From: Clostridia bacterium
GTDB taxonomy: Bacteria; Bacillota; Clostridia; Christensenellales; Borkfalkiaceae
Length of the DNA: 64,000 bases
Assembly (NCBI GenBank): GCA_017399945.1
Contig: JAFQAQ010000004.1
Coordinates: forward strand, 199,022 to 263,021
Reading direction: 5' to 3'
Below are positions 5,880 to 9,948 of the stretch, in pieces. The translations under genes and the position numbers were made by a program. The notes beneath the pieces are model-generated. The model had not been told where the DNA came from, searched no databases, and saw only the letters and a program-made list of their open reading frames with translations. How positions within the stretch are numbered: position 1 is the stretch's first letter; every line of letters starts with the position of its first letter.

Positions 5880-6800
5880 ATGAAAACTTCTATAATTTTT
5901 GAATCTACCTTAAAAAATCTTGACACCACGGAAAACGTTTGTAAAACTCTTAAAAAGTCAGGGTTTGACGGTCTTGATTATAGCATTTGCGAAAATTGGG
6001 CAGAAATCCCATCTATCTTTAACAATCCCCGTCAGACTTGGGTGGATTTTTTCAAAGAACAAAGACGAATTATCGAGGGCGAAGGGTTAAACGTTTTTCA
6101 AACACACGCCACTTTGCCTTCGGATTTCGATTATGATAATCCACACCAATTTAGTAAAAAGGTGCTTGACCAACTTAAACGTGAAATAGAGGCTACTGCA
6201 ATTTTAGGCAGTAAATATATCGTTATTCACCCAATAAATTCAATCGTTTGCCCTTACGGAAAACCTATCGACCAAGATGCAAAACAAAGGGACTATGAAA
6301 TAAACATGAAAGAGTTTTCTAAACTTAGACCTACCCTTTTAGAGTTTGGCGTTAAAAACGGCGTGGAAGATATGTTTACTTTTGATAAAGATTGTGGGTG
6401 TTACGTTCAAACGGGTTGTTCCACCCCGCAAGATATGATAAAATACGTTGACGGGCTAAACGATAGAAATGCTTTTTGCGCTTGCCTAGACACAGGGCAC
6501 GTTTATATGCACAATATTCAACCTGCACAAGCCGTTAGAGAACTTGGTGATAGAATTGAACTTTTGCATATTCACGATAATAGAGGTGGAATTGACTCTC
6601 ACCTAATTCCCGGTCTTGGATATACCGATTGGCAAGATTTTGCAAAAGCTCTTAAAGAAATTGATTATAAGGGCGCGCTTAGTTTGGAATTATCTTTTTA
6701 TTCTGCATTAAAGCAGTTCGGAAAAGATTATTTGTATAAATATTTAGACCTTGCTGGTTATAGCGTAAAACGTTTAGCCGAGATGGTTGAAAAAGCATAA
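5880..6800 (+). CDS. sugar phosphate isomerase/epimerase, tandem paralog of the preceding gene
   Basis: 306 aa. It shares the FKEQR.IEGEGL.V.QTHAT, I(V/L)HPI, CLDTGH and LHIHDN blocks with 4955..5875. Confidence 0.75.
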   Translation: MKTSIIFESTLKNLDTTENVCKTLKKSGFDGLDYSICENWAEIPSIFNNPRQTWVDFFKEQRRIIEGEGLNVFQTHATLPSDFDYDNPHQFSKKVLDQLKREIEATAILGSKYIVIHPINSIVCPYGKPIDQDAKQRDYEINMKEFSKLRPTLLEFGVKNGVEDMFTFDKDCGCYVQTGCSTPQDMIKYVDGLNDRNAFCACLDTGHVYMHNIQPAQAVRELGDRIELLHIHDNRGGIDSHLIPGLGYTDWQDFAKALKEIDYKGALSLELSFYSALKQFGKDYLYKYLDLAGYSVKRLAEMVEKA

Positions 6801-6806
6801 TAAACC

Positions 6807-7158
6807 AAAAAACACTCCGCTTGTCGCTCTTCCCGTAGGGAATTGCGACAACTAAATAAATCCGTGAACGGATTTGTTAGATTTGCTTACGCAAGTTATA
6901 TTGCCTATCGGCAGTTATATTCGCCTACGGCGAGTTAAGGATTTATTTAATATAACTGCGACTGCAAGTCGCAATCTAACGCAAAACTTGTTTTGCATAT
7001 CACTTTTAGCCACAAGGCTAAAAATATAACTATATTAACCTAATCTTTTGTGGTAAAGATAAAGCCCACCATATTTCGCTTTTTGCGAAGTATAGTGGGC
7101 TACACTTTTGTCTTAAAGTAAAAATCCCTAAGAGTGACGCCCTTTCGGAGTGTTTTTT
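6807..7158 (+). ncRNA. candidate structured RNA, or a REP/BIME- or MITE-like hairpin array, closed by a 13-bp helix
   Basis: AAAAAACACTCCG (6807-6819) is perfectly complementary to CGGAGTGTTTTTT (7146-7158). At least 10 local GC-cored hairpins lie inside (6821-6851, 6857-6876, 6881-6896, 6901-6914, 6920-6934, 6957-6973, 6981-6996, 7004-7023, 7064-7100, 7104-7119). All G-T wobble pairs occur on the plus strand. No ORF of 60 aa or more is present. Confidence 0.45.
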
Positions 7159-7181
7159 CTTTTGTTTATTTTTAATAATCT

Positions 7182-9515: not shown

Positions 9516-9621
9516 TCTCCTATACGTTTATGTTTTCACATAAAGAAATTTATAAGGTTTTCCATATAAATTATACAACCTACCATATGAAAAGTCAAGA
9601 TTTGCATCTTGCACTTGTAAA

Positions 9622-9652
9622 CAAAAAAAAGACCAAGCCTTTCGGTTGGTCG
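9622..9652 (-). terminator. intrinsic terminator, near-duplicate of the tRNA-Leu terminator
   Basis: Stem GACCAA...TTGGTC with a CCTTTCGG core (9631-9651), followed on the minus strand by a U8 tract (plus A-run 9623-9630). Confidence 0.7.
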
Positions 9653-9659
9653 TTTTATT

Positions 9660-9784
9660 TGGTGTGAAGGATGGGACTTTCGCTCTGTGACGACCATACC
9701 CGCAAAACAGTCCACTGGACTGTTTTTCCGCCCTTGGCGGACACGCAAACAAGTTTGCTAGCTCCCTATTCAAGTCCCATCCAC
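9660..9784 (-). ncRNA. tRNA-Leu-3'-end-derived chimeric element (candidate ncRNA or integration/duplication scar)
   Basis: The 3' 20 nt (9660-9679) are identical to the 3' end of tRNA-Leu, including CCA. An inverted copy of the T-arm segment (9772-9782) pairs with 9669-9679 over 11 bp. Three perfect internal hairpins lie at 9704-9726, 9727-9741 and 9745-9758. The element has its own terminator copy. Confidence 0.4.
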
Positions 9785-9789
9785 AAAAC

Positions 9790-9822
9790 AAAAAAGACCA
9801 CACCTTTCGGTTGGTCTTTTTG
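9790..9822 (-). terminator. intrinsic terminator of tRNA-Leu
   Basis: Stem GACCA...TGGTC with an ACC-TTTC-GGT core (9796-9816), flanked by A and T runs. It begins 4 nt after the tRNA 3' end. Confidence 0.7.
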
Positions 9823-9825
9823 TTT

Positions 9826-9908
9826 TGGTGTGAAGGATGGGACTTGAACCCACACGGATAACCATACGCCCCTCAAACGTACGCGTCTGCCAATTCCGCC
9901 ACCCTCAC
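9826..9908 (-). tRNA. tRNA-Leu (anticodon GAG), type II with long variable arm and encoded CCA
   Basis: The reverse complement reads GTGAGGGTGGCGGAATTGGCAGACGCGTACGTTTGAGGGGCGTATGGTTATCCGTGTGGGTTCAAGTCCCATCCTTCACACCA. It folds by hand into a 7-bp acceptor stem, a D-loop with GG, an anticodon stem TACGT/GCGTA with loop TTGAGGG, a variable-arm hairpin and a GTGGG-TTCAAGT-CCCAT T-arm. Confidence 0.9.
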
Positions 9909-9919
9909 GTAGCCTTATT

Positions 9920-9948
9920 ATATTACTCAAATTTTTTATCCTTGTCAA
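9920..9948 (-). promoter_or_regulatory. promoter of tRNA-Leu (TTGACA-17-TAATAT)
   Basis: On the minus strand, TTGACA is at 9948-9943, the spacer is 17 nt and TAATAT is at 9925-9920. The -10 box ends 11 nt upstream of the mature tRNA 5' end. Confidence 0.65.

Follow-up and report, generated by a model that had tools for sequence, protein, structure and literature searches.

What is a second copy of a tRNA 3′ end doing behind an intact tRNA gene? The question is raised by a 64,000-nt stretch of DNA from a Clostridia bacterium (hereafter the window; coordinates refer to it unless a contig, C2 to C20, is named), in which the end of tRNA-Leu(GAG) recurs a short distance downstream and the two copies frame a hairpin-rich element at 9660–9784 on the minus strand. 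A preliminary description had offered three readings of this element, namely an attL/attR-type scar left by an integrase, a degenerate tandem tRNA gene, and a small RNA that mimics a tRNA 3′ end. Comparison with the rest of the genome and with its relatives identifies 9660–9784 as one copy of a lineage-specific, multi-copy family of ~120-nt structured cassettes, which are positioned immediately behind the tRNA gene that ends a transcription unit.

The Duplicated tRNA End and the Element It Frames

The sole tRNA in the window is tRNA-Leu(GAG) (9826–9908, minus strand), on which ARAGORN and Rfam agree, and neither scan returned anything in 9660–9784. The 20-mer TGGTGTGAAGGATGGGACTT (plus strand) occurs at 9826–9845 and again at 9660–9679, where the copy is identical at 20/20 nt, lies 166 nt downstream of the master copy and is followed by a terminator of its own; an exact repeat of 20 nt within 700 nt has a chance expectation of ~1e-7. 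The direct repeat extends to 27 nt at 93% identity (repeat D3 of the repeat finder), and the adjoining 41-nt terminator blocks (9620–9660 and 9785–9825) are 85% identical (D1). The duplication, the near-identity of the terminators, the inverted copy GGATGGGACTT of the tRNA end and three internal hairpins were thus all correctly recognized in the preliminary description. The parts of the locus, in the order in which they are read on the minus strand, are the following.

9920..9948 (−): promoter-like site TTGACA-17-TAATAT, 12 nt upstream of tRNA-Leu(GAG)
9826..9908 (−): tRNA-Leu(GAG) gene, CCA encoded (ARAGORN; Rfam RF00005, 45.5 bits)
9826–9845 (−): master copy of the repeat, 3′-terminal 20 nt of tRNA-Leu(GAG)
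9785..9825 (−): terminator 1, with an A-tract, a hairpin at 9796–9816 (GACCAACC-GAAA-GGTGTGGTC) and a T-tract at 9790–9795
9660..9787 (−): whole element, as matched by covariance model R1
9772..9784 (−): L arm, with GGATGGGACTT at 9782–9772 (inverted repeats I2 and I4)
9680..9771 (−): conserved core, comprising the left junction TTGAATAGGGAG, H1, H2, H3, GCGGGTATGG and a small hairpin
9745–9758 (−): hairpin H1, GCAAAC-AA-GTTTGC, read directly from the sequence
9727–9741 (−): hairpin H2, CCGCC-CTT-GGCGG plus a T-A pair, read directly from the sequence
9704–9726 (−): hairpin H3, AAAACAGTCCAGTGGACTGTTTT, with 11-nt arms that are 100% complementary (I11)
9680–9693 (−): small hairpin TCGTCACAGAGCGA, the right end of the core, of a variant type
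9660..9679 (−): tail, identical to the final 20 nt of tRNA-Leu, A57 to A76 including CCA
9620..9659 (−): terminator 2, with a hairpin at 9631–9651 and an 8-T tract at 9623–9630, 85% identical to terminator 1

The L arm sequence GGATGGGACTT is reverse-complementary to the tRNA-Leu T-loop in its 3′ part, to the T-stem 3′ strand and to 2 nt of the acceptor, and both the folds and the model alignment make the L arm the 5′ strand of a closing helix, P1. The minus-strand tail reads AAGTCCCATCCTTCACACCA (9679–9660); its segment 9669–9679 pairs with the L arm, so that P1 is here an 11-bp helix (9782–9772 with 9679–9669), and TTCACACCA (9660–9668) stays single-stranded at the 3′ end. The 125-nt element strand folds at −48.9 kcal/mol (z = −3.8), which was equalled by 0/200 shuffles. 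Terminator 1 is built of inverted repeats I6 and I10 together with direct repeat D1, and because it is symmetric it looks bidirectional. The site at 9920..9948 is the only promoter-like site able to drive the element, none having been found when the interval between the tRNA and the element was scanned, and no open reading frame (ORF) lies between the repeats at 9660–9784. The genes flanking the locus encode a GH3 glycosidase and a flavin-reductase-like protein, neither of which is a mobile-element gene.

A Family of Cassettes in One Genome

The assembly (1.59 Mb, 29 contigs, 38% G+C, 41 tRNA genes) holds several elements of this kind. blastn of 9620–9850 found two more loci, ~75% identical over 160 nt, each just downstream of a tRNA, and an exact copy of the gene’s own last 16–21 nt is present 108–174 nt downstream of 11/41 tRNA genes. 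Six copies share one common core, here called family A, and stand behind Leu-GAG, Leu-TAG, initiator Met, Leu-CAG, Gln-CTG and Ser-TGA; core identity between Leu-TAG and Met is 91%. In five of the six, the tail consists of the last 21 nt of the tRNA from C56 of the T-loop (20 nt in Leu-GAG). Five relatives with looser cores and 16–18-nt tails follow Ser-GGA, Ser-GCT, Ser-CGA, Glu-CTC and Pro-GGG, and remnants retaining only the left end are found at Thr-CGT and on contig 23. The order of parts is constant in every copy (tRNA, terminator, L arm, core, tail, second terminator), and in every copy the L arm is reverse-complementary to its own tRNA over the T-loop and the T-stem 3′ strand. The conserved hairpin of the family is AACAGUCCAGUGGACUGUU.

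Membership of the Leu-GAG copy does not depend on its own sequence having shaped the model: covariance model R1 and alignment A2 comprise 84 distinct copies, none of them from this genome, and R1 matches 9660–9787 (minus strand) with 73.2 bits (E 6e-16) over model positions 1–125 of 125, recovering six copies in the genome. The canonical right junction GGGAGGCTCGAGAGAAGC is absent from the Leu-GAG copy, where the variant GGGTATGGTCGTCACAGAGCGA takes its place. A similar variant right end, GGTCGCACAGGCGA, occurs at five loci of relatives (L049, L127, L141, L143, L159), so that the Leu-GAG copy belongs to a sub-family and is no outsider.

Distribution across Genomes

Family A was detected by blastn in 21/24 genomes of the same genus and in 0/16 other families of the order; the same-genus genomes G001, G002, G017 and G018 gave no family-A match. 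Across 301 genomes sampled from the order, R1 matched this genus only, plus one weak match in a sister genus. A scan of public genomes with the core 18-mer GGGAGGCTCGAGAGAAGC yielded at least 115 loci. Among the matches listed, nearly all belong to metagenome-assembled genomes (MAGs) classified as Christensenellaceae, Clostridia or Clostridiales, the sources being human gut, rumen and hindgut, and within tRNA clusters the cassette always follows the last tRNA. At least 16 anticodons are represented upstream (Ser x3, Leu x3, Arg, Val x2, Tyr, Gln, Met, Lys x2, Thr, Pro), and the cassettes are always co-oriented with the tRNA. In 71 copies ARAGORN called a tRNA upstream; the tail matches it at 21/21 positions in 44 of these, and differs at 1–6 positions or is shortened in 20.

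Related layouts are carried by a genome of another family (L180), with an analogous element of different core behind the initiator tRNA, and by two IMG/VR contigs (L211, L213), with L-arm-plus-hairpin relatives adjoining tRNA fragments; because of these the architecture is somewhat wider than family A. Searches for the cassette among known sequences were negative. Rfam 15 at the gathering score gave no match to it in the window or in 17 related or viral loci, Rfam on the window and seven related loci returned tRNA and tmRNA matches only, and a permissive Rfam scan of 9600–9830 found nothing above chance. There was no blastn match in phage and plasmid collections, the core 18-mer does not occur in the viral contigs of IMG/VR, and R1 did not match any of 23 viral loci that share short motifs with the family. 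Full-text literature searches found no published description of such elements, and the family is apparently undescribed so far.

A shorter piece of the core has a distribution of its own. The H3 19-mer AACAGTCCAGTGGACTGTT occurs in eight contexts in IMG/VR contigs (viral loci L207–L224), where a rough estimate would predict ~2–3. One viral contig carries four spaced copies within a GC-rich repeat (L215), and another copy lies between tail genes of a phi29-like phage (L212). The viral AACAGTCCAGTGGACTGTT may be a common protein-binding or terminator module, or merely an over-represented palindrome.

A Conserved Fold on the tRNA-Sense Strand

The five clearest copies of this genome, folded together with RNAalifold, give a long P1 formed by L arm and tail around three hairpins, with compensatory changes at 11 pairs; folding z-scores of single copies range from −3.8 to −7.3. 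On the tRNA-sense strand the fold consists of the closing helix P1, a second and short helix, P2, and the three hairpins. In the 84-copy alignment, 95.1% of the cells in P1, P2, H2 and H3 are paired, as against 84.4% in column shuffles and 32–48% in slid controls, and the covariation score is 0.303 versus 0.117 for shuffled alignments, a value reached by 0/500 shuffles. The L arm covaries with the tail over these 84 copies from other genomes (helix 1), and the covariation of P1 tracks the tRNA (CAAGT/ACTTG, CGAAT/ATTCG, CAAAT/ATTTG). H1, H2 and H3 covary independently of the tRNA, the covarying core pairs being GCAAC/GTTGC versus GCCCC/GGGGC, TTCGCC/GGCGAA versus CTTGCC/GGCAAG, and ACAGTCC/GGACTGT versus ATGGTGG/CCACCAT.

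The L arm is antisense to positions ~54–67 of its own tRNA, and P1 usually spans positions 56 to ~66. A full minihelix, in which the L arm would also pair with the acceptor strand, was considered and rejected, the complementarity beyond position ~67 being 5.36 versus 5.19 ± 0.09 (~2 SD over permutation). As this is barely above the permutation control, the acceptor 3′ strand with NCCA is taken to be single-stranded, and the model predicts a free 3′ tail of ~9–10 nt.

In 82/84 copies the tRNA-sense strand forms the more stable fold, with a mean advantage of 5.4 kcal/mol over the antisense strand, and the changes in the tail at positions 56–63 are transitions in 7/7 cases, each keeping a G-U pair with the L arm. 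The fold under selection is thus that of a single strand of tRNA polarity. These findings also make the small RNA mimicking a tRNA 3′ end the closest of the three early readings: the sense-strand folding bias and the wobble-preserving substitutions speak for a single-stranded molecule of sense polarity, which may be an RNA.

Apparent Gain, Loss and Rearrangement of Cassettes

The locus behind tRNA-Leu(GAG) was compared in 30 species. It holds one family-A copy, two or three in tandem, or decayed copies; elsewhere the place is taken by a larger related family or, in several species, by an integrase island, and in several it is empty. In 0/30 is there a second tRNA, no tRNA model fits the element, and one core is shared behind Leu, Met, Gln, Ser, Arg, Tyr and other tRNAs, which disposes of the degenerate tandem tRNA.

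Tandem arrays in which different cores each have their own L arm and tail occur at L049, L078, L127 and L030. Two different tRNA-Ser loci of one MAG (L038, L085) carry cores that are 100% identical, a single core subtype is found at tRNA-Tyr in seven species, and cores remain 82–90% identical between species whose flanks no longer align. A tail-plus-terminator block of 52–66 nt, from C56 to the end of the T-tract, is duplicated exactly at L076, L103 and L078, and at L096 the tRNA is followed by two tandem elements without a terminator in between. The left motif precedes the right motif by 60–80 nt in 104/117 copies, and none of the 117 copies is an ORF-bearing version of the cassette. The family was also considered as debris of larger islands, which was rejected on the grounds that copies are always compact and that no ORF-bearing parent was found.

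Few of >100 loci have an integrase gene within 8 kb. The present genome encodes three tyrosine recombinases, five large serine recombinases and one reverse transcriptase (RT). A Y1 transposase gene was not found in it, other transposase families not having been searched, and single-strand transposition of the IS200/IS605 type was rejected for want of a Y1 transposase.

A 303-aa tyrosine integrase is encoded at C14:70835–71746, ~200 nt behind the Leu-CAG cassette, and has a 58%-identical paralogue on C18. A homologue of the C14 integrase (59% identical) lies near a cassette in one of >100 other loci (L131), and weak integrase-family matches were seen near cassettes at four loci besides L131.

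Some tails are shortened or broken by other small hairpin modules. At six loci (L050, L087, L097, L104, L133, L149), a second module consisting of TAGCG[T/G]GGGACGGCAACCC, a hairpin and TTCCCCTAnnAGGGGAA lies within the copied tail, its insertion point falling between the T-stem and the acceptor strand, which suggests that other tiny elements too target tRNA-end sequences. At L030, two tail-terminator-L-arm junctions are near-identical except that the terminator loop is inverted (GGTTATCC versus GGGATAACC), a flip of the kind that would be expected of strand switching within a hairpin.

Comparison with Known Systems

The cassette fails a defining feature of each of the closest known systems. 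A direct repeat of the tRNA 3′ end is described as an integration signature at tRNA genes (PMC9897764; Williams 2002 as cited there), and the resemblance to the attL/attR sites of tyrosine-integrase elements (P4-type islands, integrative and conjugative elements) and of their integrase-less derivatives (cis-mobilisable elements, CIMEs) extends to a T-loop-to-CCA repeat of 16–21 nt that leaves the tRNA intact, to tandem accretion at one tRNA and to variable presence among relatives. Unlike those elements, the cassette measures ~170 bp including its terminator, contains no gene and has no linked integrase; its interior is a covarying hairpin core common to 16 tRNA targets, and its far end bears an inverted copy of the target. 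The suggestion of an att-type scar therefore held for the repeat, which is a T-loop-to-CCA block like att repeats, and failed for the interior, which is a conserved, covarying 95-nt core and not island debris: the tRNA-3′-end repeat from the T-loop is present, while the island DNA (integrase, arm-type repeats, gene remnants) is not.

Integron attC sites and the folded attP of CTX phage offer a second likeness, in arrays of short units bounded by a foldable imperfect palindrome, insertion beside a fixed site and strand-specific folding. Unlike integron cassettes, the present ones lack an R-box/L-box consensus and an ORF, and their palindrome comes from the 3′ end of the neighbouring tRNA and its terminator. 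The boundary reads GTTCAAG or GTTCGAA, with C where the integron consensus (RYYYAAC / GTTRRRY) needs R. No IntI was noted, in analyses that included no search aimed at it. Miniature inverted-repeat transposable elements (MITEs) are likewise small, non-coding, multi-copy and structured, with inverted termini comparable to L arm and tail, but the termini of the cassette change with the tRNA, there is no short target-site duplication, one kind of site is used in one orientation, and no matching transposase was found (Y1 only searched).

The last group compared comprises tRNA-end mimics, i.e., external guide sequences of RNase P, the tRNA-like domain of tmRNA, viral tRNA-like structures and small RNAs (sRNAs) derived from the 3′ external transcribed spacer (3′ETS). 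With external guide sequences and tRNA 3′ halves the cassette shares a helix followed by a single-stranded acceptor strand and NCCA, and with 3′ETS-derived sRNAs its position in the 3′ trailer of a tRNA unit. It differs from all such mimics in having no acceptor 5′ strand, T-loop, D-arm or anticodon arm, in a P1 that joins the T-stem 3′ strand to a foreign arm, in a sequence fitted to the adjacent tRNA and not to a constant one, and in matching no Rfam family.

How the Cassette May Spread, and Competing Explanations

With moderate confidence, we read the element as a small non-autonomous cassette with an RNA fold on the sense strand, spread by recombination through the repeated tRNA end. It would then be a tiny non-autonomous integrative cassette, and neither the debris of a deleted island nor a dead tRNA. 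The folded molecule would be an RNA whose transcription begins at the tRNA promoter and continues through the tRNA terminator, an origin proposed because there is no other promoter and because L096 lacks the intervening terminator. Gain, multiplication and loss of the cassette would proceed by recombination through the repeated tRNA 3′ end, for which Campbell-type insertion and excision, unequal crossing-over and gene conversion are conceivable routes. As to the role of the RNA, our guess is that it shows the cognate tRNA 3′ end on a non-tRNA scaffold, perhaps serving some reader of tRNA 3′ ends as a decoy or guide. More tentatively, and possible rather than probable in our estimate, the family could represent a new class of element: an RNA cassette with both ends, an antisense arm and a sense tail closing with CCA, templated on the adjacent tRNA. 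One core, without a recombinase of its own, could then colonize many tRNA genes, the tRNA end being address and attachment site at once, and the RNA would be a programmable mimic of each 3′ end.

Several points weigh against spread by recombination of an RNA-forming cassette. A strong terminator with a long T-tract separates tRNA and element, here and in most copies, so that an element RNA could arise only by read-through. The cassettes have no linked recombinase, as the scarcity of nearby integrases illustrates, and a circular junction was not seen. A metagenome scan and exact-protein look-ups found no filled/empty pair at strain level, and between species of the genus the flanks are too diverged to align. 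Recombination does not explain how the L arm comes to match a new tRNA, gene conversion between resident copies could mimic mobility, and the sense-strand bias fits single-stranded DNA, as on a lagging-strand template, equally well. At L038 and L110, moreover, the L arm fits the local tRNA and the tail is of another tRNA type, which simple Campbell insertion at the T-loop does not predict.

The main rival, which we nevertheless consider unlikely, needs no RNA. The cassette would be a mini integrative element in which folded single-stranded DNA, like integron attC or the attP of CTX phage, is the attachment site for a host or phage tyrosine recombinase; tRNA 3′ end, terminator and L arm would form a long imperfect hairpin imitating the T-arm duplex, with the cores as cargo or accessory sites. 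The lack of a promoter is in keeping with this, as are terminators that flank the element on both sides and both strands, arrays that are cassette-like with the same tail-terminator-L-arm unit at every junction (L030, L133), and the constant co-orientation with the tRNA. The identity block begins in the T-loop as it does with tRNA-targeting integrases (PMC9897764), the genome has tyrosine recombinases, and a folded lagging-strand template would also produce the strand bias. However, none of the recombinases is linked to the elements, the T-loop sequence departs from the integron R-box consensus GTTRRRY, and L096 has no hairpin between tRNA and L arm. Wobble-type substitutions and strongly conserved unpaired junction motifs also suit RNA more naturally.

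A resident, non-mobile small RNA gene that serves the host, with core similarity kept by gene conversion, is a rather improbable alternative. Every terminal tRNA gene would have gained a partner RNA to display its 3′ end, which might act as a decoy against acceptor-end nucleases or toxins, or as a partner of RNase P resembling an external guide. The identity of cores (82–90%) where intergenic flanks no longer align would be accounted for, as would the one subtype at tRNA-Tyr in seven species, the covariation with its sense-strand bias, and a single-stranded acceptor strand with NCCA that is exact in 62% of copies. A host gene sits poorly, however, with a patchy distribution in which the tRNA-Leu(GAG) site is empty in several species and four same-genus genomes (G001, G002, G017, G018) are without family A, with common truncated remnants, with tandem arrays of different cores, with confinement to essentially one genus and with the strong terminator upstream.

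Very improbable is a retro-element, in which tail and terminator would be cDNA of the 3′ part of a pre-tRNA, the L arm would be made by snap-back synthesis, and insertion behind the T-tract would be by target-primed reverse transcription. The block duplicated at L076, L103 and L078 does run from T-loop to T-tract end, i.e., over the 3′ part of a primary transcript, the 18-nt tails of the looser relatives, starting at A59, have the length of a retroviral primer-binding site, and snap-back synthesis would explain why the L arm is tRNA-specific. The mechanism was rejected because RT is too rare in the genus: RT genes occur in 9/61 genomes and are absent from the element-rich G011, G013 and G015, and the lone RT here is on a prophage-like contig, has a short accessory-type ORF and one of 499 aa for neighbours, and looks to be of the diversity-generating retroelement (DGR) type. 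A one-off event, be it the deletion of a prophage or island that left attL/attR behind or the decay of a tandem tRNA-Leu gene, is hardly credible and is in practice refuted by the spread of the family, the loci of relatives and the R1 match, for although a direct repeat of a tRNA 3′ end is the classic integration signature (PMC9897764) and integrase islands occupy the same tRNA at L140, L144, L147, L151, L154 and L161, the intervening DNA is a conserved structured family behind at least 16 tRNA species, with no tRNA-like body, island remnant or ORF, and no relative has a second tRNA here.

Consequences for Annotation and tRNA Biology

Counted from the ARAGORN list, about four in ten tRNA transcription units of this genome carry such an element, which makes the cassettes a major unannotated feature of abundant uncultured gut and rumen bacteria with genomes of 1.1–1.7 Mb. 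Neither ordinary integrases, with one site per enzyme, nor transposons, whose ends are fixed, account for one core with ends fitted to 16 tRNAs, which points either to an element that retargets by copying its target or to RNAs that each display one tRNA 3′ end. Either reading is relevant to mobile DNA, to RNA structure and to tRNA processing (RNase P, CCA addition, acceptor-end toxins). On the practical side, assemblies can break at tRNA loci on account of the tRNA 3′-end fragments and tandem repeats to which cassette copies give rise, and a covariance model is now at hand for annotating the family.

Other Repeats and tRNA Loci

A second hairpin-rich intergenic block of the window, at 6800–7180 between convergent genes, had been thought to be related to the element through one of its hairpin modules. 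The kinship proposed with 6807–7158 did not survive: the best word common to both has 10 nt (E 0.06 when the two sequences are compared), which leaves the similarity at chance, and the genome-wide blastn of 9620–9850 did not match the region. The block is a separate repeat family, with copies at C2:96044–96366 (83%) and C4:128703–128836 (98%). A 50-nt piece of it lies just behind the Leu-CAG cassette (C14:70749–70798), and similar pieces (AGTATAGTG.GCTACACTTTT) are found behind cassettes of other species (L159, L124).

Fragments of initiator tRNA, 47–50 nt long and running from the anticodon loop to CCA, stand at contig ends (C4:5–51, C7:91–137, C20:395–444). They resemble the att repeats of ordinary elements integrated with the anticodon loop as target; C7 encodes a large serine recombinase as well, and C20 has phage-like ORFs and an RT that, to judge by its neighbours, may be of the DGR type. 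The initiator tRNA at C4:11173–11250 is 78 nt long, with an apparent extra bulged A in the T-stem 5′ strand (GTG-A-GG TTCAAAT CCCAC), and the bulged-A form is apparently common to many relatives across the order (loci L167–L194). At C4:55146–55245, ARAGORN calls an unusually long tRNA-Glu(TTC) of 100 nt; an intron, an interruption of the gene or a false call may account for this length.

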